A DNA stretch of 29,108 nt from Gemmatimonadota bacterium (lineage in GTDB: Bacteria > Latescibacterota > UBA2968 > UBA8231). The stretch is taken from NCBI GenBank assembly GCA_038128265.1, contig JAYPJE010000001.1, positions 128,582 through 157,689 on the forward strand, in the 5' to 3' direction. Positions 5,404 through 25,071 of this stretch are shown piece after piece. Position numbers and translations under genes: made by a program. Under the pieces are notes generated by a model that was not told the origin of the DNA, made no database searches, and was given only the letters and a program-made list of their open reading frames with translations. Numbering within the stretch: the stretch's first letter is position 1; each line of letters begins with the position of its first letter.

Positions 5404-5404
5404 A

Positions 5405-5912: not shown

Positions 5913-7109
5913 TTACTCGGCAAAAATCGAGCGGTTGGAGATACCGTAGGCCGCTCCCTCGCGCTGGATGCCGCCGACAAACTGCGCCGTGCGTCCGGCC
6001 GGTGCACTGCCGGCGTAGTAGGCGCTGAACGACTCGTTGAACGTGCCGAGCCCGGCGCGGTTGGCCGCCGTGTCGGCCCCGGCGCCGATATAGGCGTTGT
6101 TGAAGATGCCGTTTTCTTTCAGACCCTGGCCGCCGGCTTCTTTCACGCGCGCATCAATAGTGCTCAGCTGAGCGCCGGCATCGTCGCCGGCTACGGCGCT
6201 GACCATGACCTCGCGCACGCCGTGGTGGCGGATGGCCGTCCAGGTGCTAAAGCCGTCTTCGACCTGCCCCGAGCGCACGATATCGACCTCGCCGGAGACG
6301 ACGCGCGGCTGCGGTTCGATAATGCTGTCGAGGTTGGGAATGCGCGAAACCGGATAGATCAGGCCGGCCGGTAGGTCGTCGCCAAAGTAGTCGACAAAGG
6401 CCTTGCGCGTAATTTCGATGCGCTCCCAGGTCTTGGCCGGATCGTCGTCGACGGCGACGAGGATTTCCATAAAGACCGTCTGCTTGCGGAAGTCGACGCC
6501 CTGCTCGGCAAAGGGCTTGGCGTACTGCTCTTCGAGGATGAAGTTCATCTCCTCGACCAGGTCGTCGCCCAGCGTCGTAATCATCTGATCGCCCTTCTTG
6601 TGCAGCACGGAGGCGCCGGAGGGCTGGTGGTCGATCCACGTGCCGTAGTCCACCTTGCCGCCGCCGATCGTGACCTTTTCGCCTTTGACCGCTTTGATCT
6701 GCACTTCAAACAGGGCCGCTGGGTCGGGAAAGCCTTCCTGATGCGTGAAGCGCGCCATGCGATTGGAGCGCAGCGGGCCGCCGGTAACGGCGTTGATCAG
6801 GGCGCCATAGATCTTATTGAAATCGTTTTTACGCGCATCGCACTCGTCGCGGTCGGCCGAGGGCGTGGTCCACAGCACGTCTGTTTTGTAGACGTCGGAC
6901 CAGTGCACGCCGCAGGTAGTCAAGCCCTTGTTGAGGTTTTCGATGGTGCCAAACCACTCGGAACCGACGTCGTTAGCATACTGCGTGCCGACGTTGCCGG
7001 ACGGCTCGACGAGGCGCACGACATCGCCGTTGTCGTCGCGGATAAGCACCTCGGTGGGATTGGAAAAAACGGCAATCGAGTTGTGGCGAATGATGTTGAC
7101 CTGGGCCAT
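5913..7109 (-). CDS. Protein with three tandem Rid/YjgF/UK114-like repeats
   Basis: Three ~130-aa units, each echoing the Rid pattern: ENLNKGLTTCGVHWSDVYKTDV...DFNKIY...MARF...ALFEVQIKA; ...AFVDYFGDDLPAG...IIEPQ; ...FNESFSAYYAGSAPAGRTA. Confidence 0.6.
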   Translation of the reverse strand: MAQVNIIRHNSIAVFSNPTEVLIRDDNGDVVRLVEPSGNVGTQYANDVGSEWFGTIENLNKGLTTCGVHWSDVYKTDVLWTTPSADRDECDARKNDFNKIYGALINAVTGGPLRSNRMARFTHQEGFPDPAALFEVQIKAVKGEKVTIGGGKVDYGTWIDHQPSGASVLHKKGDQMITTLGDDLVEEMNFILEEQYAKPFAEQGVDFRKQTVFMEILVAVDDDPAKTWERIEITRKAFVDYFGDDLPAGLIYPVSRIPNLDSIIEPQPRVVSGEVDIVRSGQVEDGFSTWTAIRHHGVREVMVSAVAGDDAGAQLSTIDARVKEAGGQGLKENGIFNNAYIGAGADTAANRAGLGTFNESFSAYYAGSAPAGRTAQFVGGIQREGAAYGISNRSIFAE

Positions 7110-7220
7110 GAGGTTCCCCTTTTTTCGTGGATTAATGCGGGATTAAAGTGACGTTGCGATATTTTTTTGCGGTCAAATAAAATAGGGAGGAATAGCGGTG
7201 CGAACAACAGCAGGCCCACG

Positions 7221-7904
7221 ATGAAGCGCAGCATGGTTCTCTTGGCCAAAAAACCAGAGCCAGGGCAGGTGAAAACGCGGCTTCAGCCGTGCTGCAGTGC
7301 AGAGGGCGCCGCTGCACTCTACACCGCATTCTTGCGCGATTCAGCCGAGCTGCTGGCCGCTGCCAACGCCGACGAGAAGGTGATAGCCTACGCGCCGCGC
7401 GACGGGCGCGCTGCGCTGCAGCAGTTGCTGGAAGGCGGCGGTGATTTCACCTATGTGGCACAGGCCGACGGCGATCTTGGGGCTCGTCTACAGGCTGTCG
7501 TACAGGGGGCTATAGCGCGCGGTGCCGAGTGCGTTGTGGTGATTGGTTCGGACAGCCCGAGTCTGCCCTGTGAATACGTCGATCGCGCGTTTGAACTGCT
7601 CGAAGCGCACCAAGTCGTACTGGGGCCGAGCACCGACGGGGGATACTATCTGATCGGCCTGCAGCGCACGGCGCGCTGCCCGTTTTCGCATATCGCCTGG
7701 AGTTCGGGCGCGGTGCTCGAACAAACCCTGCAGCAGATCGGCGGGCAGTCGCTTGGGCTCTTGCCGCCCTGGTATGACGTAGATACACCAACCGAGGCGG
7801 CCTTTTTGCGCATTCACCTGCGCGCGCTACACCGGGCGGGCAGCGCGAGCGGGCGACACAGTCTGACGGCATTAGAAGGCATCGAACTGCCGCCGCCTTC
7901 GTAG
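7221..7904 (+). CDS. DUF2064 / TIGR04282 family (CofC-like, GT-A fold) transferase
   Basis: Start re-called at ATG 7221. AKKPEPGQVKTRL, Q-GDLGARL, IGSDSP, LGPSTDGGYYLIG, WYDVDT. Confidence 0.88.
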   Translation: MKRSMVLLAKKPEPGQVKTRLQPCCSAEGAAALYTAFLRDSAELLAAANADEKVIAYAPRDGRAALQQLLEGGGDFTYVAQADGDLGARLQAVVQGAIARGAECVVVIGSDSPSLPCEYVDRAFELLEAHQVVLGPSTDGGYYLIGLQRTARCPFSHIAWSSGAVLEQTLQQIGGQSLGLLPPWYDVDTPTEAAFLRIHLRALHRAGSASGRHSLTALEGIELPPPS

Positions 7905-7927: not shown

Positions 7928-8698
7928 CTACATACCCATAAACTGATATCCGGCGTCGACGTATATAATCTCGCCGGTGATGCCCGAACTGAGCTCGCTG
8001 CAGAGGAAGAGCGCACTGTTGCCGACTTCTTCAACGGTGACGTTGCGCTTGAGCGCGGCGCGTTCGGCGTGCGTTTCCAGCATGATATTAAACTGGCCGA
8101 TGCCGCGCGCGGCCAGGGTCTTGACCGGGCCGGCAGACAGGCCGTTGACGCGGATGTTGCGATCGCCCAGCTCGCGGGCCAGATAGCGCACGCCCGATTC
8201 CAGCGCGGCTTTGGCCACGCCCATCACGTTGTAGCGCGGGATGGCGCGCATGCTGCCTAGATAGGTCATGGCGACGATGCTGCCGCCGTTGTCCATCAGG
8301 GGCACGGCACCGCGACTGAGGGCGTTGAGCGAGTAGGCGCTGACCGATAGGGCCAGCTGGTAGTGCTCCTGCTCAATGCCGAGAAAGTGTCCGTCCTCGA
8401 GGTCCTCGCGCCGCGCGAAGGCGATGGAGTGGACGGCTGCGTCGAGGCGTCCGTACTCGCTTTTAACCTTGTCGAATGCGGCGGCAATCGAATCGTCGTT
8501 GGTCGCCTCGCAGGGCACCACGAGCGGCGTTTGCGACAGTTCGCCGACCAATTTGTTGATGCTATCCCGTTCGCGCTCGCTCAGATAGCTCAGCGCCAGG
8601 CGCGCGCCGTGTGCGTCGAGCGAGCGGGCAATGCCCCAAGCAATACTGCGGTGATTGGCTACGCCGGAAACAAAGGCAAATTTGTCCTGCATCAACAT
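7928..8698 (-). CDS. fabI: Enoyl-ACP reductase FabI
   Basis: GVANHRSIAWGIA, HSIAFA, SAYSL, YNVMGVAKAALE, SAGPVKTLAARGI. AAGGAG RBS. Confidence 0.95.
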   Translation of the reverse strand: MLMQDKFAFVSGVANHRSIAWGIARSLDAHGARLALSYLSERERDSINKLVGELSQTPLVVPCEATNDDSIAAAFDKVKSEYGRLDAAVHSIAFARREDLEDGHFLGIEQEHYQLALSVSAYSLNALSRGAVPLMDNGGSIVAMTYLGSMRAIPRYNVMGVAKAALESGVRYLARELGDRNIRVNGLSAGPVKTLAARGIGQFNIMLETHAERAALKRNVTVEEVGNSALFLCSELSSGITGEIIYVDAGYQFMGM

Positions 8699-8719: not shown

Positions 8720-9358
8720 CTACTGTTCGGAATCGCTCTTCTGTTTGAACAACTGTTCCCACTCGTCGACTTCACGCTCGTCCAACGCCAGGTCGGGATC
8801 GAGCTCCCGCGCGCGCCGTGCCGCGTTGCGCTTTGGCTGCGCACGCCGCGTCGGCTGCTGGAAGACCTTGGCCAATTCGTCTACCTCGTTGCGCTCGGGC
8901 GCCCAGTGCGGATCGGATCCCGGATCGACGTCCTCGGCCCGGTCGGCGCGTTGGACCGGGCGCTCCAACTCCTCGGCAAAGGTCGGCGAATCGACAAAGG
9001 CAATATTGTGCCGCGCGGCAAAGCGCTGAATTTCTCGGTCCGATGTGACCACGCGCAGCCAGCGCGCGCCGTGTTTGCGCTCTACCGCTTCCATAATAAG
9101 GTCGTCGGCTTTTTGTGGACGACGAGAGAAAAATATATCTATGTTGCCGCGTTGTTGGTAGTCCGCATAGCCGATTTCGGGATCGCCGTCGTAGTAGATA
9201 GACACCCGCAGGTCACCGCGCTTGGCATGAGCTGACAGCACGGCCTCGATGTGGTCGCGCGCGGCCGCTAAACTCTGGTTCTGCGTTTCGCTGTAGAGCG
9301 GGACGCATTTAATCAGATTGTATCCGTCAACCAGGATATGTGGGCGTTGCTTGGCCAT
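8720..9358 (-). CDS. NYN-domain (YacP/Rae1-like) ribonuclease
   Basis: ILVDGYNLI, YYDG, ADDLI, VVTSDREI acidic PIN/NYN motifs. Confidence 0.85.
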   Translation of the reverse strand: MAKQRPHILVDGYNLIKCVPLYSETQNQSLAAARDHIEAVLSAHAKRGDLRVSIYYDGDPEIGYADYQQRGNIDIFFSRRPQKADDLIMEAVERKHGARWLRVVTSDREIQRFAARHNIAFVDSPTFAEELERPVQRADRAEDVDPGSDPHWAPERNEVDELAKVFQQPTRRAQPKRNAARRARELDPDLALDEREVDEWEQLFKQKSDSEQ

Positions 9359-9375: not shown

Positions 9376-11235
9376 CTATGCGCGCTCGCTTAGGGCAATG
9401 CCCGTGCGGTTAAGGCGGTATGACACGACGCCGCTCTTGGCGTAGGCCGCCACCTTGCGCAGCTCGTTGAGCTGTTTGCGCAGCGCCTCTTCGCAGCCTG
9501 CTCGCGCTATGAGCAGGGCAAAACCGCCGCCGCCCGCACCGGTAATGAGGCCCCCTTCGCTCAGTTCGCGCATGGAGGGGTGTTCAAATAGGTGCTGTAG
9601 CGTTTCGCTGGTGGCGCCGGCATCGAGCGTGCAGCGCAGCTGCCAATAGCGCGTGGCCAGCTGACCGAGCTGGGCGTAATCGGCCTGGCGCAGGGCTTCG
9701 ACCATGCGATCGTGAATGTCGAGCGATTCGCGAATGGCCGGATAGCGCTTGGGGTCGCGCGTCAGATAGGCATCGAGCACCTCGTTGAGTCCGCGCGTTG
9801 CACCGCGCGATATGCCGGTGTCGAATAGCACGACGCGCTCGGCAAAGAGCGCTTCATCGATACCGCTTATAAACTGGCGCTCTGGTGTGGGTAGGCCGTC
9901 GGTCGGCGGCGCGTAGAAGTCCTTGATGGCCGATGGGCCACCGCAGGCACCGCGCGCATCCTGCCACCCGCTGTTGAGGCCGAAGCTCTGTTCGAGCAAT
10001 ACGCTCTGGTCGTAGAGACCGGGATACTCGCTTTCGGCCCTCGCATAGGCGTGCCCCGAAAGTCGGTAGAGCATTTTGAGGACGGCGGCGGCTAAGATGC
10101 TGCTCGTGCCCAGGCCCGAGCCCTGCTGCACCTTGCTGCTGGTGACCAATTCGAGTCCGCCGCCGCCGGTAAAGGCGGCGACGTCGTCCAGTATATTGTC
10201 CGAGTTGTCGCGGACGATGCCGATGTGCACCAGCGCCTGCTTGACCAAGCGCAGGGCCTCATCGCCGCCGCGCCGGTAGGCGAAAAATAGCTTGCTCTGC
10301 GTGGCGGCATCGCCCTTGTTGCTGGCCTCGAAATCGGCTTTAAAATCCATCGAAAGCGAACGCAAAATGAGTTTGGGCTCGGCTAGGCGCCGCGCTCTGA
10401 CCGTCAGCGGCGGCGAGGCGTGTTCCTCGCCTTCCCTCTGCAGGTCGATGCCGATGTTTAGCGTCTTGCCTCCCTGCTCTTTGCTGCGCATGTGGTTGTC
10501 GGAGGCATTGGCGCTGGAAATGCCGATGCGCAGCGGCGATTCGACGAGGAACGTGCGGTTAAAATCGTCCTCTACCATGCGCGGGGCCGCGTCGCGCTCC
10601 TCGCCTAGCGCCGCTAGGCTGCGCCGCAGATCGATGCGCTGCAGCTGGTTGATGCGCGCTTCGTATGCCTCGGCTAATTGGTCGTAGGCCTTATCCTCTT
10701 TGAGTTTGGCAATGGCTTCGCCGTCGATGCGGCAGGAGGGCGCAGAGCGCCGGCGCCAGGCTCTGGCGTCGATCTGCATGCGGCCGTATAAATCGGCCAA
10801 AATGCGCGCGGTGCGCATGCCGCGCAGACGGCGCTTGGAATCCTGCTGCTTGTCGATGTAGGTGCTGAGCGCTTTGATTGTGGCAAAGAGCACTTTGGGA
10901 TCGTCGTCCGGCAGCAGGCGGAGAATCTGGCGGTGATCTACATCGGCCTGTGCGTCGACGGCGTCGACGGCGACCTTGGGCAGTTCGCGCTCGACGGCAT
11001 CGGCAAACAGCTGGGTCCAGGTCTCGGGGGTCATAACCGAAAAGAGATGGTCGATCGCCGCGTGCGTTTGCAGGTGGCTGAGCAGGCCGTCGTTGAGCAA
11101 GAGGTGACGGATAAACTGGCGGCGTTCGTCGCGGCTGCTCTGCCCGCTGCGCACGCTCTCCACGATGCGATCAATGAGTTCGGTCGCCTGTTCGGGGTGT
11201 GCTACAGCCGCGAGTCGTTTGAGGTATTCGTCCAT
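9376..11235 (-). CDS. GHMP-family sugar kinase (fucokinase/HddA-like) with unknown N-terminal helical domain
   Basis: Start re-called at ATG 11235 (MDEYLKRL). SPLRI, QGSGLGTSS (ATP loop), LEQ...SGWQD, TGAGGGGF. Confidence 0.8.
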   Translation of the reverse strand: MDEYLKRLAAVAHPEQATELIDRIVESVRSGQSSRDERRQFIRHLLLNDGLLSHLQTHAAIDHLFSVMTPETWTQLFADAVERELPKVAVDAVDAQADVDHRQILRLLPDDDPKVLFATIKALSTYIDKQQDSKRRLRGMRTARILADLYGRMQIDARAWRRRSAPSCRIDGEAIAKLKEDKAYDQLAEAYEARINQLQRIDLRRSLAALGEERDAAPRMVEDDFNRTFLVESPLRIGISSANASDNHMRSKEQGGKTLNIGIDLQREGEEHASPPLTVRARRLAEPKLILRSLSMDFKADFEASNKGDAATQSKLFFAYRRGGDEALRLVKQALVHIGIVRDNSDNILDDVAAFTGGGGLELVTSSKVQQGSGLGTSSILAAAVLKMLYRLSGHAYARAESEYPGLYDQSVLLEQSFGLNSGWQDARGACGGPSAIKDFYAPPTDGLPTPERQFISGIDEALFAERVVLFDTGISRGATRGLNEVLDAYLTRDPKRYPAIRESLDIHDRMVEALRQADYAQLGQLATRYWQLRCTLDAGATSETLQHLFEHPSMRELSEGGLITGAGGGGFALLIARAGCEEALRKQLNELRKVAAYAKSGVVSYRLNRTGIALSERA

Positions 11236-11273
11236 GGGTATTTTCGTTTTCCGTGAGAAGGGGCCTGTGCGAG

Positions 11274-12686
11274 CTATGCGACGCGCGCGCGCAGGCCATT
11301 CCACAGCGTTTCGCTTACGCCGGCTTTGCCATCGCCCATTCGCTGCGCGTGGCACAGGCCTGCCGGCCTGGGGTTGGCCTCGAGGAGGACGGCGCAGGGG
11401 CGTCCCGCTGCGACATCGACTACGAGGTCAATGCCGACCAACAGCAGGTCGGCAAAGAGGGCCGCTGCGCGCTCGGCGCGCTCGGCAGTTTCGCGCCAAA
11501 AGGCGCAGTCCAGCTCAATGGGCTGCCAGGCGTCATCGCAGCGATAGAACAGCCGGTCGCGCAGCGTCGCAACAGAGGCGATGCGCCCGCCCCTGCCGCG
11601 CGAGGCAGGGGCCCTGTCGTGGGCACCTAGCTGGGCGTAATGCGAGTCCGCCCGGGGCCCAGCGCACGTGCCTACGTTGATGCGCAGGGCCAGCGTGCGC
11701 ACGGGACCCTCCTGACCGTCTCTAAAAAAAACGCCGTCTCGTCTGGCCTGCAAGAGCGCGCCAGCGCCGCTGGTGCGCTCTCCCGCGTAGGCCATCCAGT
11801 CGCCGGTGCTGTCCACGTAGGCCACGTCGCGTCCCTCGCTGGCATCGTTTGGCTTGGCCACGGCGCGGGCGTGCTGCTCGATAAAGGCCCGGGCGCTAGC
11901 GCCGTCGTCGACGGAGAGGAAACGGGTGGCCGGCACTTCGAGACCGCAGCGATTCCAGGCCGCCGTCGTGGCCGCTTTGTCGTCTGCCAGTTGAGCCCCG
12001 TCCCACGGGTTGACCTGCGGTACTTGCAGGCGCGCCGACCACGCCCTGTGCAGAGCCTGTTCATCGCTTCCCATGCAGAGAAAATGGGCGCTGTCGATGG
12101 GCAGCGGTGTCTCCAAAGGGGCTTCGACAAAGCGCTGTCGGTCTAGATCAAAAAAAATGGCACGGCGCGCGCAGTTGTCGTCGTCAATCCAGTCGACGTG
12201 CACGCCCAGCACGTTAAAATGCGCCCGCCCCAGCGCCGCCGAATCGGCGCTAAAGGCGTCGACGACTAGCGGGTAAAGTTCGTGCGTAAAAAGCGTGGGG
12301 GCTGCGCATACGACGGCGTGATTATGCGCACCGGACAGCAGTTGGCGCAGGTGCTGTCCGCTCACCGCGCGAGTTGTTATGCAGAGTTCGGGTGCCAGGG
12401 GTTCGCTCATGCGGGCATCGCGTGCCAATTCGATGAGGCGCCGGCGGAACGGGGCCGAGTGGGCAAGCGCCTGGCGCGCGTCGCCCGCGTCGACTGCTGT
12501 CGACCAGTCCCACTCTGCACAGAGGGCGTCAAGCGCGCACTCACCGTCGTCTTCTGCATCGCCGAGGGCATCGGCTAGAGCGTATTTAAAGGCGACGCTG
12601 AGCTCCTCGTCGCGCAGTCGCGCACCGGGGTCGAGTCCGAGCGCGCGTGCCGCGCGCGCGCAGGCTGCGAGACTACGGACGCGCAT
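11274..12686 (-). CDS. ATP-grasp domain protein (RimK-like ligase fold)
   Basis: NP...LADDKAAT...GLEVPAT, AVAKPNDASEGRDV, LLQ, VGIDLVV, LLEANPRPAG. Start overlaps the stop of the giant ORF. Confidence 0.75.
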   Translation of the reverse strand: MRVRSLAACARAARALGLDPGARLRDEELSVAFKYALADALGDAEDDGECALDALCAEWDWSTAVDAGDARQALAHSAPFRRRLIELARDARMSEPLAPELCITTRAVSGQHLRQLLSGAHNHAVVCAAPTLFTHELYPLVVDAFSADSAALGRAHFNVLGVHVDWIDDDNCARRAIFFDLDRQRFVEAPLETPLPIDSAHFLCMGSDEQALHRAWSARLQVPQVNPWDGAQLADDKAATTAAWNRCGLEVPATRFLSVDDGASARAFIEQHARAVAKPNDASEGRDVAYVDSTGDWMAYAGERTSGAGALLQARRDGVFFRDGQEGPVRTLALRINVGTCAGPRADSHYAQLGAHDRAPASRGRGGRIASVATLRDRLFYRCDDAWQPIELDCAFWRETAERAERAAALFADLLLVGIDLVVDVAAGRPCAVLLEANPRPAGLCHAQRMGDGKAGVSETLWNGLRARVA

Positions 12687-15600
12687 CGCCTGCGCGACGC
12701 AGGGCGGCTACATAGTCTTCGCCCGCTTTGGTCAAGTCGGATAGCACGATGCGCGCCTGCTGGCCGATGGCATCGGCGTCGACCGCTCGCCCTGCGGCAT
12801 CGGCCGCCTGTTCTTCGAGAACGGCCTCGCGCAGCGCGACGCGATCCCACAGCCCTAGGCCGATATTGGGTTCGACCAGCACGACGCGCCAATCGCGGAT
12901 ACGGGCGGGAAAGGTCTGATCGCCGCGACGCAGCACATACTGTGAGCCGCTGCGCTGGCCGCGCTCGTCATACTGCGGCTGTATGTCGACCAACTCGCCT
13001 TCGCTGTCAAAGACGGGGGCGACTAAAAAGTCGAGCATCATGTAGCGCGGGTTGCCGTAGGATACGCCGGATAGGTCGCGTCCAACGCGGGCGCCCGTCT
13101 CCTGCAGGTAGGCTTCCGCCGTGCGCGCCTCGTAGGCGGCCAGCGCTTCCATGACGCGGGCGCCGGCTTCGGCCAGCTTGGCAAAGAGCGCTTCGCGGTG
13201 CACCTCCTGCACTATATCGGGCAGGAACAAGTCGAGGTTGCCGCCGCGCCCGACATTGGTAACCAGCTGCTTGCTGTTAAGGGTAATCCAGTGCGATATA
13301 TGCCATTTGTCGGCGGTGTTCTCGGCCTGGGGTGCGTCGGTCGACAGAATGATGCGATGCGATCCGTAGATGCTGGTGCGCGGGCGGCGCTGGCGGTCGA
13401 CAGAGCTACCCCAGTCGACGATCTGGCGATCGACAAACGAACGCATAAAGTCTTCTGTTGCCCAGTATTCGGGCGAGGAGACGACGACCTCCTGAATGGA
13501 GACGTTGTTTTTGAGTGCGATCTGATAGGTGAAATCTACCGCTTCGCGCATGGCCTCATCGTCTAGGCTGCCGTCGACGCGGCGCAGGACAAAGACGCTC
13601 ATGCCGCGCCCGCCTGAACCCGCTGCGTCTTTGACGATGGCGATGCGATGCTGGCGGGCAAATTCGGCCAGCCCCGGATAGGGCGTGCCCTCCCGGCCGC
13701 GCTCGATCCACTCTTTGACTTGCGCCTCGCTAGCGCCCTCGCCATAGCGACTCAGCCAATCGATTTCCGCGGGAATTTCCACGCCGGAAGACGGCGGGAA
13801 GATGTCTGGGTATTTGGCCTTGTCGTAGGTGGTCCAAGTGTGGAAGCGCGACTGGATTGTGTAGGGCAGCCCGCATGCTTCGAGCTGGCCCTCGTCGTAC
13901 GATGGGTCGCCGTGAAATGGATAGATCAGGGCCGCCAGCACGGGGCGCGTGAAAGCGGCGGCCACGCGAATGCCCTTGGCCGGCACGGCCGATGCACGCC
14001 GCGCCGCTTCTTCAGCGGAGAGGCCTTTGTGGCGCTGCAGCGCCTGGGCATAGGTCTCGGCGTCGATGTAGAAGTGACCGCTGGCTACGCGCACCGTCGG
14101 CGGCTGACCGTCGGCCATTTCGATATAGCGGCTGATGATGAGGTTGGCTCCCGCGCGGCCCTGGTCGCGCAGCTGGCGACACAGCGTCGGTCCTTCGCCC
14201 AAGGCGCGCGAGTAGTGCGTGCGGCCGACGGGCACGGCAAAAATGTGGTTGACGCGGTGCTCGGCGTCGATCAGTTCGGGGTCGAACTGGCTAAAGATCT
14301 CTGGGATGGGAAAGCCGTCATTGCGGATAAAAGCCAGTTCGCGCAGCTGTCCGTAGGAGCGCCACAGATGCTCGGCTGGACTCGCTGCACCGGCGCCGAT
14401 GGCCTCTATGGCCTGTCCATCGAGCCAGTTTCCCAGCAGCAGGTCTTGCTCCTGCTGGGACAGCGCGGCTACCTCGCTGCAGGTGCAGACGACGGTGCGC
14501 AGGTAGCGGTAGAGCCAGGCGTGGTGGTGCGCTGCCAGCTGGTAGAGCGCCTCGCCCTCGACGTGGTCAAAGCCAATGCCGCGGTCAAAGATCCACGGGC
14601 GGTAGGGATAGAAGTGGTCGTTGATGGTTTCGGCAAAGAACTCAGCTAGCCCGCGCCAGAGCGCCTCGGTATCGCGCTCTTCCGCGGGTGCATGAGTAAA
14701 TGCGATGGTTGTTTCAATCGCATAGAGGCTGTAAAAAAGCGCACCGGCGCGGGCGATCATATCGAGGCGACGGTCGTGCTCGGCCTGGGTGATGTGCGCA
14801 CCCTGTCGCAGCTCGACGGTGCGCTGGGCCAGCCTGCCCAGATCGCCAATGTCCTCGTAGCCGCCGGCGATGGCGCGCCAGTTTTCTTCCTCGATCTGAC
14901 GGCTGGCAAAGAGGGCCGATATGCGTTCGATAAACCCCTGTGCGACCTCGGGATGTTCCTCGTCAAAGAGGTGACTGGCCAGCGCAAATAGGGCGTTGCG
15001 CGCGTGCCCGCAGAAGGTGCCAAAGGCCGCTTCGCTCGGCGCCGTTGCACCGTCGCCGAGCGCGTCGTCGGCCGCAGTGCAGGCCGCGTCAAAGGCGATG
15101 TGCTGCGCATCGACAGCGTCAAAGGCGCTCTGGCGCTCGTTGAGCGCGCGGGCCAGGGCGATGCGCTCGGCCAGCTGGCGCCGCGCTTCGATGGCGATGG
15201 TTGGACTCTCTTCGGAGGCCTTGTTGGAGCTCTCGATCCCCTTTTCTTCGCGAAACTCTTCGGCGCGCGGCTGAAAGCGCGCGTGCAGCAGCGCACTGAG
15301 TGGACGCTGTGGGTCGGGCGGTGCGCTGTTGGTCAGGGCGGCGACAGCTGCTTCAACGCGCTGGCGATAGGTGCGAATCTCGGACTCGGGCTGGCCGTCG
15401 AGCAGGAAGAGGCCGCCTAGGGCGAGAAAGGTCTCGAAGTCGAGCGCATCCAGTTCCAGTCCGCGGCCGATCCCGGCTAGCAGGCGCGCGATGTGGCGGT
15501 CGCGTTCGCGGTCGCGGCCAAAGCGGTGCAGCTTGGCCGCCTCGTCCAGCTGCTGTTCGACCTCCTGTTCCTGCCGTATTTCGTCGCGAATCTCGTCGTA

Positions 15601-18600
15601 GATGAGGCGGGCGTCCGCCGGGCGGTTCTCAACTAGGGCATGGCCCAGCGCCTCTGCGCGGCGACGGCGACGGCGCATGGCCGCGCGCCACGATTCGATG
15701 GTCTGACCCCCTAGGCCGATGCTGGCGTATACGCTCTCGCGCTGGCGATTGTCTCCGGCGGCAAAAAACAGCATGACGTCAAAGCGGTTCATCGCACGGC
15801 GGCGTGCACCGGAGGCCCCGTCGACGATGACCAGCGCGCTGTGCGGATTGCCCTCCAGCATCAGGTCGCAAAGGTGGGCCGGATTTTCTAGCAGGTCGAG
15901 CAGCTGGCGATGGGGAATGCCCGCGTCGAGCACGTCGGCGCCCTGCAGCGCGCGCTCGTAGTCGTATTCCGGGCCGACGGTAGCCAGGTGTAGGGCGTGC
16001 AGACGGCCGCCCAACTCCTCGCACAGGGCGCGCTTGGTCTGGTCATCAATCGGCGCGCGGTGGGCCCAGCGCGCCACGTCGGGGCCGTAAACCTGCATAT
16101 TGGCCTCGATTTCGCTCTCGCCAAAGCCGCATGCCAGCAGGCGGCGCTCGGCGTCGGCGGCTATTTCCTCCAGGCGCGTATCGCTGGTATAGGACAGCAG
16201 GTCCTGCGTGGACAGGCCGGTAGGCGATACGACGCGCATTTGGCCGGGCGGCGCGTAGGCGGGAAAGATGGCACAGAGGCGCTCTTCGTCCAGCGCGCTG
16301 GGGTCGCCACCGAGCAGCTCGACGATGCGCTGGCCGCGTCCGCGCGCTTTGAGTGCGGCATAGCCCTCGCCCGTCAGTGCGGCCAGCTCTTGGCCCTCGC
16401 TGTCGAGCGAGTAGAGCAGATGCTGACCCGTGCCGGCCATGATTTCAAACTTGCGCATGCCGGCGGCAAAGCGGCCGTCCTGGGTGTCGGGTTTGTACTC
16501 GGCGGCCAGCACGGCGACAAAGCGCGCCGTGTCGATCGGCACGTGCGGATGGCGCCGCGCTGCTTCGACGACGGCCTGGCGCAGCAGCCAGGTCTTAAAA
16601 AAGGGCATAAAGCGGTTCACGTGCTCGCCGCCTGCCACCATCTTGTGAATGCCCCAATGCGCCGCCAGGCTGGTCATGACCCTGTAGGGATCGCGCAGTT
16701 CGGGCTGACCGAGGCCGTCGAGCACGCCGGCCACGCGCGTGAGGTGAAAAATAGAGGAGGTTGCGTCGATGTGCTGCTGCAGATAGTCGGCCGCCCACTG
16801 CTCCCACTCAAAGTGGGTGGCGTATTGGTCGCGCTGGGCCAGCACGTCGTGGGCCAGCTGGACGGCGCGCTCGTGCTGGTCTTCGGGCAGGCCGATTTGG
16901 CGCAGCTTTTCGCCGCGCGTCAGGGTGAGGACAAATTCGAGAAAGAGCCCGTCTTTGGGCACGCAGTAGCCGCCGTAGCCCTCGCCGGCCGGGTGAATGA
17001 GGCGATCGCGGCGCCGGCTCATCTGGTCGCCCATTTCCTCTATGTCGCCGTGTCCGGAGGCCGTCGTCATCAGCGAGAGGGCGTTGGAAAAGGCGAAGTG
17101 CGAGCTCATTGAAGCGTTCTCGCCCGTTTTGAGCAGCTCGGGCTGAGTCAGGCTCTCGTAGCTTTGCACCGACTTGTTGATCAGGCCGTAGATGCGCCGG
17201 CCGACGCGGGCGGCGGCCCGATCAGCGCCGCCGACCCACTGCGACCAAGTTTCGACCGACTCGCGTTCGCGGTGGCCCAAGTCGACGCGGCTGGGCGTGT
17301 ACAGCAAGTGGTAGCGCTTGTTGGCGCCGCTGGCCTGGTAGTAGTGGAGCGGGTGTAGGGTGCGATGGGCCAGGCCGTGCTCGGCGACGATTTCCTTGCG
17401 CGCGGTAGTTTTGGCCAGGCGTCCGTAGCGGCGCAGAAAGCTGTCGGCGCGCTGGCTCAGGCCTAGGGTTGAATCGGCTGCATCGAGGTCTTCGAGGACC
17501 TGCTGACGCGCGGCAAAGCGCGCGTAGGTCTCGCGGTCCTGGCGGTAGTCGGCATCGGCGTCGACGACGGCGCGCAGGGCCTGGCGTGCGTCGCATCCGG
17601 GATGGGCGGCGGCGTAGGCGGCGACCGCGCTCTGCAGCGCCTCTCCGTTACGGCTGACGACGTGGTCGAGTGCGCGCTCGCGCAGGGCATCACCCTCTCG
17701 CTGTAAGTGCTCTTCTACCAGCGTCGGTTCGCTCAGCGCGCCACTGAGCAGGGCACCCGCCTGCTGCTCCTGATGGGCGACGAGCACGCCGAGGGTGGCC
17801 AGTTCGCGCTGTACGCGCCCGTTGCCGCCAATGACGCGGCGCAGTGCCGCACCTTCGGAAATCTGCTCGCGCGAAGCGAGCTCTTCGACTTCGACCCAGA
17901 TGCCCAATTCGCGCACGATATGGCGACCCAATTGGGCGATGCGCTCGGCGTAGAAGCGCTGGCGCTCCTCCACCTGGGGGTGCAGGTCGAACTGGCTGAC
18001 GACGTTGTAGAGCGCCATGGACTCTTCTAACCAGGTGCGTATATAGCCTTCCGTCATGCCGGCCGACTGCGTTGTCAGCACGTGCAGCGTGGGCAGCGTC
18101 GGGCGCGGTGCAAACGCCTCGCAGTGGCGCTCCTGCCACGCGGCTGGATTGCACGGTAGGTTGAGTGATGTGGCTACCCCATCTACGGCATCCGACCACG
18201 ATAGGCCGCTCTCGCGCAGGGGGCGCAGTGCCGCCAGTGCGGCGTGTTCGTCTTCGATGAAGATGCGTCGAAGCGCCGCGTAGGGCTCGATGTCTTCGCG
18301 CTCAACAAGCTGGTGGACGGCCGCGCCGTCGCGCGCGTACAGTGCGTCGAAGAGGGATGCCAGGGCCAGCACTTCTGCGTCGCTGGCCCTTTCCTGTGCG
18401 CGGGCAATAAGATCGCTGTCGGTGCCGCCGCGGCCGGCGATCCATTCGCGCGCTAGGGCGATCAGCTCGCTCTCCAGCACGCGGCGTATATTGCGCGCCC
18501 AGTGGTCGGCCATTTCCTCGCGAAAGGATTCTTCCATGCCGGCGATGTCGACGACGGTGCGCGTCTGCTCGCGTCCATTCACGACCGAAACCTGCTCTTT

Positions 18601-20100
18601 GATAAAGAGCGGTATTGCTTCGATCCAGTGGTCGGCCTCTTCCAACCAGCGGTAGTCGGGACTGCTGTAGACGCGATTGCCCGACAGGCGCATGAGCTTT
18701 TTGAGGTTCTCGGCCTTGCCGAGATAGGGTTCCTCAAACTCGTTGATCTTGATGAGCAGATGCGAGCCGGTCGGCGATGGACGCTGACTGACGACTACGT
18801 AGGCGGCGTTGCGCTTGGGCGCAGCTAGGGCCGCGCGGCGCACCTGTTCTACCAGGCGCAGGCGCGCGCTGGTCTGCTGGCCGATGTGGGCATCGTCCAG
18901 GCTCGGCAGCGCTTCGGCTGCCAGCTCGTCTCCGTGGTTCTCAATCTGCTCGCGCGCGCGCTGCAAGAGGTTCAGCGTCTCGCGCTGCTGGACGTCGAGC
19001 ACGGCTTCTTCAAAGCGCTCGCAGGCTCCTTCTAACTGCGTCAGGGCAACTTCATCGCTCTGCTTGAGCAGCAGGCGCAGCGCCTCGGCCGTCGGCTGCA
19101 GGGCCTCGCTGTCGCGCGACGTTTCGTCGAGCGCATCGGCCAGTTCGGCCATGGCAGCGGTCGGGCGCAGCAGGGCTGCATCCGCAAAGAGCGTGCCCTG
19201 ATTGTGAAAGGCGCGGCTCATGCGGCCAAAGACCAACTCCTGCTGTTCCCGGCGCACTTCGGTGGCGATGCGGACGATGTTGTCGCCCTCGAGTTCGCGG
19301 TCGTAGGCGCGCAGCACCTCGTAGAGGCGCAGGCGTTTTTCGTCGGGGTCGATATCGCTGGACAGCACCTCGCGCGCGGCGCGGCGATCGTAGGGCAGGT
19401 CGAGCCGGTCCTGACCCAGCAGCCAGGTGATGTGCAGGTCGCGCCACGCCGCCTCGCTCATGTCTTCTGCGCTGCGCGTGGCGGCCCGGTCTAGGAAGTG
19501 GGCAAAGGCGTTGCCGCTGTCCAGGTGCGGCGATTCGAGTAGCTGGTGCAGGCGCAGGCGTTCGCTGCGCGACAGCGCGTCGTGCAGCGAGAGCACATCG
19601 CGCAGCGCGCGGCGCGGCGCCGCCCCGCGACGAACGCTGAAGAGATAGTACTGGCCGAGCGCCAACAGCACTTCAAAGCCGTTGAGTAGCTCGGGCTGGG
19701 CAGCCGTCAGATCGCCCTTGTGGGGATCCAGTTCGATGTCGAATAGGGGCGCAATATCGCAGGCGACGTAGATCGCCTCGTCGCCGATGTCGAGCAGTCG
19801 CTCGTGGTCGCGCACAAAGTGAATGCGCAGTCCGTCCAGTTCGCTCCAAAAGGTCGCGTCGACCTGCTCGGCAAAGCGGCGCAGCACCAGGTGTAGGGCG
19901 CGCTCACACAGGCGCGCCGTCAGACGCGCCGGGGCCGCCGTGTCGTCGTCCAGCTGTATAGCCGGTGGAACAATGGTTTCGCTGGACGTGCGGTAGTAGC
20001 CCGCCCCGACCTGTTGGCCGCTGCCGCGCCGGGCGCGCCAGAGACCTGCGCGCGGGTTGTGCGATGCTACAAGTCGCAGGGGAAAGCCGATAGAAGACAC
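12673..20100 (-). CDS. 2475-aa multidomain enzyme: expanded UDP-glucose/GDP-mannose dehydrogenase-like region fused to a C-terminal ATP-grasp domain
   Basis: Uninterrupted ORF, GTG start with CAGGAG RBS. Dehydrogenase motifs YTPSRVDLG, ELLKTGEN, GEGYGGYCVPKD, AEYKPDTQDGR. ATP-grasp motifs IVKDAAGSGGRG, IQEVV, VTNVGRGG, MLDFL, LVEPN. Confidence 0.8.
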   Translation of the reverse strand: MSSIGFPLRLVASHNPRAGLWRARRGSGQQVGAGYYRTSSETIVPPAIQLDDDTAAPARLTARLCERALHLVLRRFAEQVDATFWSELDGLRIHFVRDHERLLDIGDEAIYVACDIAPLFDIELDPHKGDLTAAQPELLNGFEVLLALGQYYLFSVRRGAAPRRALRDVLSLHDALSRSERLRLHQLLESPHLDSGNAFAHFLDRAATRSAEDMSEAAWRDLHITWLLGQDRLDLPYDRRAAREVLSSDIDPDEKRLRLYEVLRAYDRELEGDNIVRIATEVRREQQELVFGRMSRAFHNQGTLFADAALLRPTAAMAELADALDETSRDSEALQPTAEALRLLLKQSDEVALTQLEGACERFEEAVLDVQQRETLNLLQRAREQIENHGDELAAEALPSLDDAHIGQQTSARLRLVEQVRRAALAAPKRNAAYVVVSQRPSPTGSHLLIKINEFEEPYLGKAENLKKLMRLSGNRVYSSPDYRWLEEADHWIEAIPLFIKEQVSVVNGREQTRTVVDIAGMEESFREEMADHWARNIRRVLESELIALAREWIAGRGGTDSDLIARAQERASDAEVLALASLFDALYARDGAAVHQLVEREDIEPYAALRRIFIEDEHAALAALRPLRESGLSWSDAVDGVATSLNLPCNPAAWQERHCEAFAPRPTLPTLHVLTTQSAGMTEGYIRTWLEESMALYNVVSQFDLHPQVEERQRFYAERIAQLGRHIVRELGIWVEVEELASREQISEGAALRRVIGGNGRVQRELATLGVLVAHQEQQAGALLSGALSEPTLVEEHLQREGDALRERALDHVVSRNGEALQSAVAAYAAAHPGCDARQALRAVVDADADYRQDRETYARFAARQQVLEDLDAADSTLGLSQRADSFLRRYGRLAKTTARKEIVAEHGLAHRTLHPLHYYQASGANKRYHLLYTPSRVDLGHRERESVETWSQWVGGADRAAARVGRRIYGLINKSVQSYESLTQPELLKTGENASMSSHFAFSNALSLMTTASGHGDIEEMGDQMSRRRDRLIHPAGEGYGGYCVPKDGLFLEFVLTLTRGEKLRQIGLPEDQHERAVQLAHDVLAQRDQYATHFEWEQWAADYLQQHIDATSSIFHLTRVAGVLDGLGQPELRDPYRVMTSLAAHWGIHKMVAGGEHVNRFMPFFKTWLLRQAVVEAARRHPHVPIDTARFVAVLAAEYKPDTQDGRFAAGMRKFEIMAGTGQHLLYSLDSEGQELAALTGEGYAALKARGRGQRIVELLGGDPSALDEERLCAIFPAYAPPGQMRVVSPTGLSTQDLLSYTSDTRLEEIAADAERRLLACGFGESEIEANMQVYGPDVARWAHRAPIDDQTKRALCEELGGRLHALHLATVGPEYDYERALQGADVLDAGIPHRQLLDLLENPAHLCDLMLEGNPHSALVIVDGASGARRRAMNRFDVMLFFAAGDNRQRESVYASIGLGGQTIESWRAAMRRRRRRAEALGHALVENRPADARLIYDEIRDEIRQEQEVEQQLDEAAKLHRFGRDRERDRHIARLLAGIGRGLELDALDFETFLALGGLFLLDGQPESEIRTYRQRVEAAVAALTNSAPPDPQRPLSALLHARFQPRAEEFREEKGIESSNKASEESPTIAIEARRQLAERIALARALNERQSAFDAVDAQHIAFDAACTAADDALGDGATAPSEAAFGTFCGHARNALFALASHLFDEEHPEVAQGFIERISALFASRQIEEENWRAIAGGYEDIGDLGRLAQRTVELRQGAHITQAEHDRRLDMIARAGALFYSLYAIETTIAFTHAPAEERDTEALWRGLAEFFAETINDHFYPYRPWIFDRGIGFDHVEGEALYQLAAHHHAWLYRYLRTVVCTCSEVAALSQQEQDLLLGNWLDGQAIEAIGAGAASPAEHLWRSYGQLRELAFIRNDGFPIPEIFSQFDPELIDAEHRVNHIFAVPVGRTHYSRALGEGPTLCRQLRDQGRAGANLIISRYIEMADGQPPTVRVASGHFYIDAETYAQALQRHKGLSAEEAARRASAVPAKGIRVAAAFTRPVLAALIYPFHGDPSYDEGQLEACGLPYTIQSRFHTWTTYDKAKYPDIFPPSSGVEIPAEIDWLSRYGEGASEAQVKEWIERGREGTPYPGLAEFARQHRIAIVKDAAGSGGRGMSVFVLRRVDGSLDDEAMREAVDFTYQIALKNNVSIQEVVVSSPEYWATEDFMRSFVDRQIVDWGSSVDRQRRPRTSIYGSHRIILSTDAPQAENTADKWHISHWITLNSKQLVTNVGRGGNLDLFLPDIVQEVHREALFAKLAEAGARVMEALAAYEARTAEAYLQETGARVGRDLSGVSYGNPRYMMLDFLVAPVFDSEGELVDIQPQYDERGQRSGSQYVLRRGDQTFPARIRDWRVVLVEPNIGLGLWDRVALREAVLEEQAADAAGRAVDADAIGQQARIVLSDLTKAGEDYVAALRRAGDARP

Positions 20101-20176: not shown

Positions 20177-21763
20177 TCAGGCCGTCTGCTGTAAAAAGGC
20201 GATAGAAGCGCTTTTAATCTTGGGCGCCGTCAGATAGCATAGCTTGAAGAATTGTCTGTAGTCGATCAACTGCCACAGGCAGTCGGGCACCTCGAGCCCC
20301 TCCAGCGCGCCGGACAGCGCTTCGAGGCAATCTTGGCCAATGGCCTCTTCGACGGCTTCGTCAAGGCCCATGCCCGATTTGGTTTTGACCGCCGCTTCGA
20401 TCTGCGAAAAGATGAGGGGAAACGGATGATGCGCCTCGCCGGGGTAGGGAAACAGACAGTTGCTGGCCAAGTTGGCCAGGGCGATCAGTTGGAGCAGGTA
20501 CGGCGAGTTTTCGCCCACGTCGTGGTGATGGGCGATGACCTGGATGAGCCCGGCCGGTAGCTCCCACTTTTCGGCCAGGCGCGAGCCGATAATCTGGTGG
20601 TCGATATCCTGCATGAGAAAGCGCTCTATGGCCAACGTGGAATGGGCCCACAGCTGGCCCTCTTCTTCGGCCTCTTGTGCCTCCGACTCGATGACGGCGT
20701 TGATTAGCTGCAGCGAATCCTCCAGGCACATGATCATGGTGATCTTGCCGATGTCGTGCAGCAGGCCCGAGGTAAAGGGATCGTCTTTTTCGTGTAGCTC
20801 GAAGCGGTTCCACAGTTCGGCCTGGCGCAGGGCCTCCAGCTGGTCGTCTTCAAACTGGTAGCGATCGAGCTCGTTTCTATGCTGGGGCGACTGCTGGGCT
20901 GGGTCGGCTGGCAGCACGAAGAGCTTGGCGTAAAAGGCGGCCGCCAGCGAGTGGCGCCAGTACTGGTCGATGGTGCGCTCGTTGGTATTGCGCAAGATCT
21001 GGCGCATCTGGCAGGCGGTGACGATCTCGCGGATCGTCCGTGCGCTCGCCAGCGAGACGGCCTGCTCGATGGTTTCGACGCGCGTGCGAAAACCGTAGCG
21101 CGCGCTGTTGAGCAGGCGCAGGATAACGGTGCGCATGGGCACATCCGAGTCGATGGCCTCGGCCCACTTTCTCGGCGAGTCCATATCGTCCAACTCGGCG
21201 ACTTTGCGCTGCGTTTCGGGCAGCGAGGGAAATTTATCGACCGCATTGAGGCGCGCGTCGATCATGCTGCCGCGCTCTTCCGGACTCATGTTTTCCAAGT
21301 CGATGCCCACCGACATGCCGGAGATAACGTAGTCTTTGATGATGGGAGCAAAGAAGTCGCCGTTTGCATCGCCCACTTCGACGATGGTAATCCCGAGCTG
21401 CTCGAGATTTTTCTCCGTTGCCTTGATTGCTTCTACGCTGCTGCCGAGCGGATTTCTGCGGGGGTGTATGACGATGACAATTTTAGCTTTTTTTGACAGC
21501 ATGCGCGCCACGGCGGTGGCGTTGCCGGTTAGCCCGGGGCCGATGAGGACCATTTTGACGGTGCCGAGGTAGCGGCGCAGGGCCAGCGCGACTTCGGTGC
21601 TGTCCTTGCACACGGCGTACTTGATGCGGTCCTCTGCTGCCAGCGCGCTGTTTTCTACGCGCAGATGCTGCAGCAGAGCGACTAGATGCGCCTCGGGCTG
21701 TATCTTGTCGCCGATGACGATCAGCGGGTTGTCCTCGTACTGCGGGGCTTCTTCGTCGCTCAA
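20177..21763 (-). CDS. HDOD-domain signalling protein with N-terminal receiver-like domain
   Basis: FPSLP, ILRLLNSARYG, YWRHSLAAA, FTSGLLHDIGK, DHQIIGSRLAEKWELP...HH. TTG 21763 has a GGAGG RBS; TTG 21778 is an alternative start. Confidence 0.85.
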   Translation of the reverse strand: MSDEEAPQYEDNPLIVIGDKIQPEAHLVALLQHLRVENSALAAEDRIKYAVCKDSTEVALALRRYLGTVKMVLIGPGLTGNATAVARMLSKKAKIVIVIHPRRNPLGSSVEAIKATEKNLEQLGITIVEVGDANGDFFAPIIKDYVISGMSVGIDLENMSPEERGSMIDARLNAVDKFPSLPETQRKVAELDDMDSPRKWAEAIDSDVPMRTVILRLLNSARYGFRTRVETIEQAVSLASARTIREIVTACQMRQILRNTNERTIDQYWRHSLAAAFYAKLFVLPADPAQQSPQHRNELDRYQFEDDQLEALRQAELWNRFELHEKDDPFTSGLLHDIGKITMIMCLEDSLQLINAVIESEAQEAEEEGQLWAHSTLAIERFLMQDIDHQIIGSRLAEKWELPAGLIQVIAHHHDVGENSPYLLQLIALANLASNCLFPYPGEAHHPFPLIFSQIEAAVKTKSGMGLDEAVEEAIGQDCLEALSGALEGLEVPDCLWQLIDYRQFFKLCYLTAPKIKSASIAFLQQTA

Positions 21764-21883
21764 CAGGGCGTCCTCCAAGCGGGTCCGTGGCGCTGAGATG
21801 ATGCGAAGGTATCAGCCGGGCAAAGACCCAAAAATAGCTTGGAGGCAGCAATAAATCAACATGCTATCGAACGGAGTACTAAA

Positions 21884-21944: not shown

Positions 21945-23366
<1,422 letters not shown>

Positions 23367-23385
23367 GATGTGTTCCTCGCTGTGT

Positions 23386-24633: not shown

Positions 24634-24646
24634 GGCGATCTTTCTC

Positions 24647-25015: not shown

Positions 25016-25055
25016 GTCCATTCCTCGGGTCTGAGTCTGAGATCGCCCCCACTAT

Positions 25056-25071
25056 AGCAAAAGGGATGCCT
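25056..25071 (-). promoter_or_regulatory. sigma54 (-24/-12) promoter
   Basis: Minus strand AGGCATCCCTTTTGCT = GG-N10-GC with TTGCT, 40 bp before the first gene of the module. Confidence 0.75.

Follow-up and report, generated by a model that had tools for sequence, protein, structure and literature searches.

Introduction

The closest described counterparts of the system reported here are the nucleoside diphosphate (NDP)-sugar 6-dehydrogenases, the ATP-grasp ligases, and the GHMP sugar kinases. In human UDP-glucose dehydrogenase (UGDH), Cys276 is the nucleophile, Lys220 is a base, and Asp280 positions water; Lys220 and Asn224 serve alcohol oxidation, and Glu161 is the Brønsted base in thioester hydrolysis, the E161Q variant accumulating the thioester (PMC3265891). 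The closest chemistry documented in the literature searched is that of the Campylobacter jejuni capsule, whose glucuronate is amidated at its C6 carboxylate by the TupA-like ATP-grasp at the C-terminus of Cj1438 (PMC11800379). Here we describe a trio of adjacent genes in a 29,108-nucleotide (nt) stretch of a Latescibacterota metagenome-assembled genome (MAG; GenBank GCA_038128265.1, contig JAYPJE010000001.1, positions 128,582 to 157,689), below called the window. The trio encodes a 2475-residue protein (P0001, the giant) with a predicted UGDH-derived core and a predicted RimK-like ATP-grasp module, a stand-alone ATP-grasp protein (P0002), and a GHMP kinase (P0003). It is an uncharacterised and widely distributed multi-enzyme unit, in which known folds occur in a new arrangement.

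With the NDP-sugar 6-dehydrogenases (P. horikoshii 4r16, M. mazei 3g79, CalS8 4xr9, and human UGDH 2q3e) the giant shares a predicted three-domain fold (Z 13-14.4); it has equivalents of the human residues Lys220, Asn224, Cys276, and Asp280 and of the C-terminal YKxxTxDxR motif. Unlike these enzymes, its core contains large helical insertions, lacks the GxGxxG fingerprint, has Ser in place of Glu161, and is embedded in a 2475-amino-acid (aa) protein. Like RimK, LysX, ArgX, GshB, and Ddl, the C-terminus of the giant has a complete predicted ATP-grasp fold, and P0002 matches these enzymes by profile, with the nucleotide and Mg motifs kept. However, the module in the giant takes up ~515 residues where RimK has ~290, and it stays below the Pfam ATP-grasp cut-offs.

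The proposed logic of the trio is that of the C. jejuni capsule system, in which a sugar C6 carboxylate is joined to an amine by an ATP-grasp (PMC11800379); the best Pfam match of P0002 is the sugar-transfer-associated ATP-grasp PF14397, below its cut-off. The Cj1438 ligase is fused to a GT2 glycosyltransferase in a capsule locus, whereas the trio is without a glycosyltransferase and has an unrelated architecture. Among the salvage pairs (Fkp, HddA/HddC, and GalK with GalU), P0003 resembles HddA and, at 6e-37, the kinase half of Fkp, and GalU is found in four methanotroph operons. In contrast to Fkp, the N-terminal 230 aa of P0003 are not a pyrophosphorylase, and an unrelated GHMP type substitutes for P0003 in other lineages. 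For the capsule pathway of C. jejuni, we take the UGDH Cj1441 to be the supplier. Cyanophycin synthetase, the F420 and H4MPT glutamyl ligases, and mycosporine ligases were rejected as direct relatives because of weak sub-threshold matches and an unfit gene context.

The literature searched contains no description of the giant family, of a combination of UDP-glucose dehydrogenase, ATP-grasp, and GHMP kinase, or of a fusion of nucleotide sugar dehydrogenase with RimK. A first-pass annotation of the window, made from its sequence alone, had likewise named no characterised pathway with this architecture. In the main text of two preprints on giant genes of Omnitrophota, ATP-grasp, GHMP, and UDP-glucose are unmentioned.

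Results

The Giant Family and Its Distribution

The giant gene occupies 12673..20100 on the minus strand, starts with GTG, and encodes 2475 aa predicted to be cytoplasmic. On the same strand, it overlaps by 14 nt (12673-12686) with the P0002 gene (11274..12686, 470 aa). The kinase gene P0003 is the minus-strand open reading frame (ORF) 9376..11355 (659 aa); when its start is taken at the conserved Met41 (nt 11235), the gap between P0002 and P0003 is 38 nt. Transmembrane-like segments were detected in none of the three proteins.

A protein homologue search yielded 138 full-length relatives of the giant at E <= 0.001; the 120 of them that were listed have 38-79% identity to it and cover 51-100% of the query. 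They originate from Latescibacterota, Methylococcaceae/Methylovulum, Armatimonadota, and MAGs labelled Gemmatimonadota, the nearest ones being named Candidatus Latescibacterota. Nearly all are unnamed or 'hypothetical', and one source gives 'Rossmann-fold NAD(P)-binding domain-containing protein'. Across 20 aligned relatives, the mean column identity is 54%, and conservation extends from about residue 190 to the end. In addition, 190 stretches in species-representative genomes encode giant relatives. Given these stretches and the 138 full-length relatives, the trio consists of real genes rather than chance ORFs. A profile search over 1.84 billion representatives retrieved 392 proteins at E <= 0.001, 104 of them at E <= 1e-30. 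In the phylum of the window, the giant was detected in 45 of 168 genomes (E <= 1e-40), corresponding to 11 of 52 high-quality genomes and 18 of 49 genera.

For the comparison of loci, we used 65 of the 190 stretches, including those of two isolates, Methylovulum miyakonense HT12 (L037) and Methyloglobulus morosus KoM1 (L024). In the midpoint-rooted FastTree phylogeny of 49 giants, the Methylococcaceae proteins nest within the Latescibacterota-type clade, beside a 'solo' subclade, which hints at transfer of the giant gene into methanotrophs. Some assemblies carry two giant paralogues (L056/L061, L057/L059, G073 with copies on C22 and C28, and G072). In the L057/L059 assembly, one copy has an adjoining ATP-grasp gene and the other does not; L056 also has one. 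Loci L011-L015, L046, L053, L062, and L073, labelled Gemmatimonadota, Planctomycetota, or Gemmatimonas, are 55-93% identical to the window, with synteny kept. The taxonomic labels of these MAG bins look inconsistent.

Conservation of the Trio in Synteny and in Fusion Proteins

Loci were judged for synteny when the giant ORF ended in a stop codon and was followed by at least 1600 nt (n = 50). A P0002-family ATP-grasp gene lies directly 3' of the giant gene in 37 of them, and this synteny spans Latescibacterota-type MAGs, Methylococcaceae (both isolates included), and Armatimonadota. The 13 loci without an adjoining ATP-grasp gene include a deep Omnitrophota-type clade and the 'solo' subclade. 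A P0002-family gene was found elsewhere in all five 'solo-giant' genomes searched (E 1e-77 to 1e-167), and in three of the five this distant copy is directly followed by a GHMP gene. The same situation is observed in the genome of L020.

The presence of the kinase gene was judged in those ATP-grasp loci that continued for at least 1200 nt (n = 34). A GHMP kinase is encoded in 23 of them; 17 of these kinases are of the long P0003 type and 6 of a short type (334-346 aa). The short type has no BLASTP similarity to P0003 and by NCBIfam is nearer to mevalonate kinase and HddA. To judge from these comparisons, two unrelated GHMP types occupy the same operon slot. In two of five genomes with the giant and ATP-grasp genes and no adjoining kinase, a short-type GHMP gene was found elsewhere (1e-98 and 1e-108).

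Another line of evidence is provided by fusion proteins. Twenty-two of the proteins retrieved by the profile search are 3000-7944 aa long, and those that are named are Candidatus Omnitrophota MAG proteins. A P0002-like module stands right behind the giant part in 20 of these 22 proteins of at least 3000 aa, and GHMP_kinases_N is then present in 8 of the 12 fused proteins scanned with Pfam. In P0130 (4185 aa), the giant, P0002-like, and nearly full-length P0003-like parts follow each other in gene order. Synteny together with these fusions in gene order identifies the trio as one conserved unit. Thus, the conservation in other genomes on which the first-pass annotation had made its proposal depend is observed, and the co-orientation and tight spacing it had described hold on the ORF listing with the conserved Met41.

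The Dehydrogenase-Like Core of the Giant

The remodelled NDP-sugar 6-dehydrogenase-like core (15691..18813, minus strand; approximately residues 429-1472) is broken up by long helical insertions. By profile, the signal is partial: PF00984 matches residues 988-1054 with 24.3 bits against a cut-off of 25.4, TIGR03026 matches residues 922-1056 with 53.6 bits against 189.8, and PF03721 and PF03720 gave no reported match. The dehydrogenase motif noticed in the first-pass annotation is therefore a real signal that stays below the family cut-offs.

The giant was folded as two halves (residues 421-1600 and 1601-2475) from 49-row alignments cut out of the loci. For the N-half, the model has a predicted local distance difference test score (pLDDT) of 81.5 and a predicted template modelling score (pTM) of 0.80. 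With this 1180-residue model, Foldseek gave no match at E <= 0.001; what it did list were large helical repeat proteins. In the VIA-align structure comparison with 48,161 chains, NDP-sugar dehydrogenases rank first: UDP-ManNAc dehydrogenase 4r16 (Z 14.4, 314 of 418 residues aligned, root-mean-square deviation (rmsd) 20.1), 3g79 (Z 14.0), CalS8 4xr9 (Z 13.2), C. elegans UGDH (Z 12.3, rmsd 3.9 over 211 residues), and 4a7p (Z 12.1). Generic Rossmann dehydrogenases score under Z 10. The matches to 4r16, 3g79, CalS8, and 4a7p extend over model residues 9-1052, and their rmsd of ~20 implies that the core domains are arranged differently from those of the canonical enzymes. On the predicted structure, the giant contains a complete three-domain NDP-sugar 6-dehydrogenase fold, which helical insertions extend to ~1040 residues. 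The core profile also matches 4r16 at 5e-7, in an alignment that takes in the Cys loop and the beginning of the C-terminal domain.

The catalytic positions were assigned by hhalign against eight canonical NDP-sugar dehydrogenases from the genome of the window and related genomes (probability 97.8, E 1e-12, 212 columns, template positions 151-368 of 443). In this alignment, E988, K991, and N995 correspond to the canonical E-x-x-K-x-x-x-N, GGYC1046VPKD1050 to GGxCxPKD, and YK1203PDTQD1208GR1210 to the NDP-sugar-binding YKxxTxDxR. Ser937, in the motif YTPSRVD (17281..17301, minus strand; residues 934-940), occupies the column of the invariant canonical Glu of the P-E-R/F motif. The canonical UGDH encoded elsewhere in the genome (334.6 bits) aligns to human UGDH 2q3e at ~1e-201, which identifies this column as the NPEF motif with human Glu161. 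The loop GEGYGGYCVPKDG (16948..16986, minus strand; residues 1039-1051), with the putative nucleophile Cys1046 and Asp1050, is kept in 47 of 49 aligned giants, and C1046, K991, N995, and D1050 are invariant across all 49. In the 22 fused relatives of at least 3000 aa, which have only 22-36% identity to the giant, S937, K991, N995, C1046, K1049, and K1203 are present in all 22, position 1050 is D or E in all 22, and R1210 is retained in 21. On the predicted first strand of the core, AAYVVVSQRPSPTGS contains Q439, R440, and P443, invariant in the 49-row alignment.

In the giant core, the putative sugar-side catalytic residues are thus strictly constrained, the hydrolytic base is systematically missing, and the classical NAD fingerprint is gone, as far as alignments can tell. 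Because it fails the score cut-offs and lacks both the hydrolytic Glu and GxGxxG, we describe the giant as UGDH-derived rather than as a UGDH.

The Two ATP-Grasps and the Kinase

The C-terminal module of the giant (12715..14259, minus strand; residues 1948-2462) is a predicted RimK/LysX-like ATP-grasp with insertions. The model of residues 1601-2475 has pLDDT 88.2 and pTM 0.86. Foldseek matches it to Ddl/VanA (1.2e-6, probability 1.0), and VIA to RimK 4iwx (Z 17.4, rmsd 3.7, 280 of 294 residues aligned), LysX/ArgX (Z 16), DcsG (15.3), Ddl (14.7), and GshB (14.5), over model residues 348-862. Pfam and NCBIfam reported no ATP-grasp model for the giant. K2157 is retained in 21 of the 22 distant relatives (Arg in one), and the SGxR, NxGRGG, and ExN motifs are retained in most of them. 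E2410 and N2412 are present in each of the 16 relatives whose alignment covers these positions. To judge by the model, the giant carries an intact RimK-like ATP-grasp fold.

P0002 is also below the family cut-offs: its best Pfam match, PF14397, scores 26.6 against 31.4 and covers only profile positions 7-88, and rimK_fam scores 18.9 against 143.4. A profile of the P0002 family matches RimK, LysX, and Ddl in the PDB (RimK 3vpd, 1.3e-6). In the family, K278 and E436 are nearly invariant and N438 is invariant. In both ATP-grasps, we take the Lys to bind ATP and the E-x-N to bind Mg. Profile and language-model features assign P0002 to the ATP-grasps. The comparison of P0002 with the C-half of the giant by hhalign gave a probability of 1%; the two ATP-grasps would accordingly belong to different lineages and are apparently not close paralogues. 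This suggests two different ligation steps.

P0003 contains a fucokinase/HddA-like GHMP kinase domain (9376..10554, minus strand). It passes GHMP_kinases_N PF00288 (27.9 against a cut-off of 22.3), and NF009948, the kinase half of fucokinase, matches residues 268-656 at 6e-37. The equivalog cut-offs for fucokinase/HddA are not reached (NF009948, 126.8 against 721; NF049969, 38.2 against 600). Motif II (QGSGLGTSS) and motif III (TGAGGGGF) are conserved in 13 P0003 relatives. A lineage-specific N-terminal extension of ~230 aa (10555..11235, minus strand), conserved among the same 13 relatives, had no family match in the Pfam and NCBIfam scans; it also occurs in the fused protein P0130 (hidden Markov model positions 14-605). 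The assignments made in the first-pass annotation, namely dehydrogenase and ATP-grasp folds in the giant, an ATP-grasp for P0002, and a GHMP kinase for P0003, agree with the profiles and with the predicted structures of the giant.

Other regions of the giant include its N-terminus (18811..20100, minus strand; residues 1-430), of which residues 1-190 are poorly conserved in the conservation profile. Residues 1-430 have no Pfam match, and residues 181-430 no usable ESM Atlas match. Between the two enzyme modules lies a region (14260..15690, minus strand; residues 1471-1947) that is helical by secondary structure in both models. It was barely tested by the structural comparison, because Rossmann and ATP-grasp domains dominate the match lists.

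Neighbouring Genes in Homologous Loci

The first-pass annotation had recognised no nucleotidyltransferase in the gene run of the window. This is correct for the window, yet in four Methylococcaceae loci the ATP-grasp gene is followed by a nucleotidyltransferase. These four proteins are GalU by TIGR01099 (326.3-356.7 bits against 326.8; three are above the cut-off and one is just below), and in L044 the gene order is giant, ATP-grasp, GalU, short GHMP. GalU within the homologous operons fits an NDP-sugar substrate. In M. morosus KoM1, an aldose 1-epimerase gene (PF01263, 1.2e-39; L024:227-1120) is located directly 5' of the giant; none was seen in the other loci scanned. The epimerase, the anomeric kinase, and GalU resemble, by analogy, a Leloir-type feed into UDP-hexose. 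Neighbours outside the trio differ between lineages.

Signalling genes of the HDOD, HD-GYP, GGDEF-EAL, or MASE1 type recur beside the giant in two phyla. In the window, an HDOD-domain protein (20177..21778, minus strand; PF08668, 1.5e-33) is encoded directly 5' of the giant with a 76-nt gap; the same-strand genes 5' of the giant also include a PAS histidine kinase and an NtrC-type regulator. The HDOD gene is upstream of the giant in 17 of 65 loci. It is possibly a regulator of the trio, and its membership is uncertain. In the methanotroph locus L040, the gene immediately preceding the giant likewise encodes an HDOD protein, but an unrelated one (L040:6947-8230). HD-GYP regulators and GGDEF(-EAL) proteins are encoded in Methylococcaceae loci, the signalling-gene sites being L037:7395-9988 and 22505-25147, L036:6396-7508, L044:7765-9624, and L034:20231-21634. 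Downstream of the unit, a proteobacterial MAG carries an ABC-three-component (ABC-3C) system (CTD7, MC3, DUF3732; L041:19750-23371), and a Methylococcaceae MAG carries a Cas6 gene (L027:20232-21104). A role of the trio as a defence system was rejected, as PADLOC gave no match for it.

The Rest of the Window

Two further minus-strand genes are packed behind the kinase gene, NYN_YacP (8720-9358) and a FabI-like gene (7928-8698; NCBIfam match below the cut-off). By tblastn, 6 of the 65 loci contain NYN and 17 contain FabI, and every one of these loci belongs to the Latescibacterota type. Being restricted to the closest lineage, both were dropped as members, and they probably lie outside the unit.

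The segment 3565-7904 is a second conserved gene group, all members of which recur in 16-17 of 65 loci, in the Latescibacterota-type lineage only. It comprises a LarA-like nickel-pincer-cofactor isomerase (3565-4809; NF052515, 533 bits against a cut-off of 400), a TPP-enzyme C-domain protein resembling the beta subunit of sulfopyruvate/phosphonopyruvate decarboxylase (4840-5580), a 398-aa protein without any family match (5913-7109), and a TIGR04282 gene (CofC-like, 'arsenosugar biosynthesis glycosyltransferase'; 7167-7904) on the strand opposite to the trio. The segment 5-3468 contains an lptA-like gene, lptB (ABC ATPase), and rpoN in the usual order. Two minus-strand ORFs, 24711-25235 (174 aa) and 25310-26119 (269 aa), have no Pfam match.

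The sigma-54 promoter consensus has 13 matches in the window against 15.2 expected, none of them in the intergenic regions 5' of the giant or HDOD gene, and the scan for promoters and terminators gave chance-level results only. The host MAG is 4.29 Mb in 102 contigs and 84% complete. DNA of the window is present in estuary, marine, seawater, and biofilm metagenomes (12 studies), and no RNA data set was listed as containing it. Short contigs from one 'metatranscriptomic' run, flagged 'probably DNA', cover 10451-10703, 11894-12132, and 12948-13315; they speak neither for nor against expression of the trio.

Discussion

A Proposed Route from a Nucleotide Sugar to a Uronic-Acid Amide

The reading that we prefer, with a probability of about 0.4, is that the trio makes up a single multi-enzyme unit of the cytoplasm, its parts encoded by separate genes, which acts on a nucleotide sugar via oxidation and amidation. 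The GHMP kinase, acting at the anomeric position, would make a sugar 1-phosphate, to be converted to a UDP-sugar by GalU or a housekeeping transferase. The dehydrogenase-like core would then oxidise C6, with the acyl group held on Cys1046. Because the hydrolytic Glu of UGDH is Ser in the giant, release of this thioester by water is expected to be slow, and either an amine would take over the acyl group or the uronate would be slowly released. Two ATP-grasp ligases would add one or more amino acids via acyl-phosphates, giving an amide or peptide of a uronic acid, either UDP-linked or free. The Glu-to-Ser change suggests that the thioester is not meant for hydrolysis; the dehydrogenase-like module and the ligases would thereby be coupled. 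Both the sequence of reactions and the product are what we infer, and the sugar-uronate-amide route is plausible and unproven.

A bolder version of this scenario, which we regard as doubtful, is that the giant is an assembly-line enzyme. Its UGDH-derived module would have lost hydrolytic release and would hand the Cys1046 thioester directly to the ATP-grasps for the building of amides or peptides. If true, this would be a ribosome-independent and nonribosomal peptide synthetase-independent 'glyco-acyl' ligation machine, and its metabolite would be common to Latescibacterota, Omnitrophota, Armatimonadota, and freshwater methanotrophs.

Several observations weigh against the preferred scenario. 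The giant lacks an N-terminal GxGxxG, the sole conserved GxGxx[GA] being the Cys loop at 1039 (47 of 49 giants); the predicted first strand of the core carries SQRPSPTGS instead, modelled at pLDDT ~50. The profile alignment of the core to the canonical enzymes stops short of the NAD-binding domain, and hhalign of the N-domain blocks against that domain gave a probability below 1%. In the latter alignment, which is not significant, ADHWIEAIPLF would correspond to the strand-4 motif and LHVLTTQSAGMTEG to the ESTxxPGTT motif; these are tentative leads. NAD(P) binding by the giant, and hence oxidation, is unproven, and by sequence the family scores far under the curated cut-offs. The kinase is a frequent rather than a universal partner: 11 of the 34 judged loci have no nearby GHMP gene, and in three of the five genomes searched for a distant one, neither GHMP query found a kinase (E <= 1e-20). 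GalU occurs in four related loci only and could be a housekeeping neighbour. Neither a glycosyltransferase, nor an exporter, nor an amine-supplying gene consistently adjoins the unit in the loci scanned. Furthermore, the top structural neighbours of the giant's ATP-grasp, RimK and LysX, act on protein C-termini and not on sugars, and ~900 residues of the giant (1-430 and 1471-1947) are without an assigned role. The first-pass annotation had proposed a line of enzymes that phosphorylates, oxidises, and amidates a sugar. The folds and the unit that it assumed are retained, but oxidation by the giant is hypothetical, given the missing GxGxxG and the Glu-to-Ser change, and the kinase is not a universal partner.

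Alternative Explanations

The changes in the N-terminal domain would also be compatible with a core that is redox-inactive, still binds an NDP-sugar or NDP-uronate, retains the reactive Cys, and serves to carry acyl groups or hold the substrate. An acyl-phosphate made by an ATP-grasp would then be captured by Cys1046 as a thioester and transferred or reduced, so that the chemistry of UGDH is reversed or curtailed. In favour of this explanation, an invariant QR-containing loop takes the place of GxGxxG, all 22 distant relatives have Ser at the position of the hydrolytic Glu yet keep Cys, Lys, Asn, and Asp, and a canonical UGDH elsewhere in the genome (334.6 bits) makes the giant dispensable for the ordinary supply of UDP-glucuronate. 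We nevertheless consider it unlikely, because the entire three-domain fold, its N-terminal Rossmann part included, appears to be retained in the model, Lys991 and Asn995, whose equivalents serve alcohol oxidation in UGDH, are invariant, and no precedent was found in the literature searched. Conservation of the NDP-sugar active-site residues favours a catalytic sugar module. It thereby speaks against another scenario, in which the unit is a RimK/LysX-type ligase for peptides, poly-amino acids, or carrier proteins that grows a chain of Glu, Asp, or some other amino acid on a protein or peptide tail, possibly that of the giant itself, the sugar modules supplying a primer or serving as a regulator. 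This scenario draws on the best matches of the giant's ATP-grasp to RimK (Z 17.4) and LysX/ArgX (Z 16) and of the P0002 profile to RimK and LysX, and two different ATP-grasps would fit successive ligations. However, a small LysW-like carrier or an obvious acceptor gene is not conserved nearby in the loci scanned, and we hold such a ligase to be rather improbable.

One or both ATP-grasps might instead act as kinases, as do inositol-phosphate kinases and synapsin, and yield a sugar or polyol bearing several phosphates, such as an osmolyte or a signal. ITPK1 and PPIP5K2 are indeed among the structural matches (Z 12-13), and the recurrence of HDOD, HD-GYP, or GGDEF-EAL genes beside the giant would suit a signal. 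But ligase-type neighbours score higher (Z 14.5-17.4), and the conserved NxGRGG and ExN motifs resemble what we take to be the RimK/GshB type, making kinase activity very unlikely. Finally, the three genes could be adjacent by coincidence and have unrelated roles; in favour of this, the neighbours beyond the trio vary by lineage. Cross-phylum synteny, fusions in the same order, and genome-wide co-occurrence when the genes are apart already contradict this, and its probability is negligible.

Implications

Almost all copies of this ~2500-residue protein, conserved across several phyla, are annotated as 'hypothetical', and the family thus represents a sizeable piece of uncharted metabolism. The family-wide Glu-to-Ser change within an otherwise intact UGDH active site poses a concrete and testable mechanistic question. 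As the unit is present in the cultivated M. miyakonense HT12 and M. morosus KoM1, genetics and metabolomics are feasible. Identification of the product could reveal a new sugar-acid conjugate that serves as a cofactor, an osmolyte, a cell-surface precursor, or a signal.

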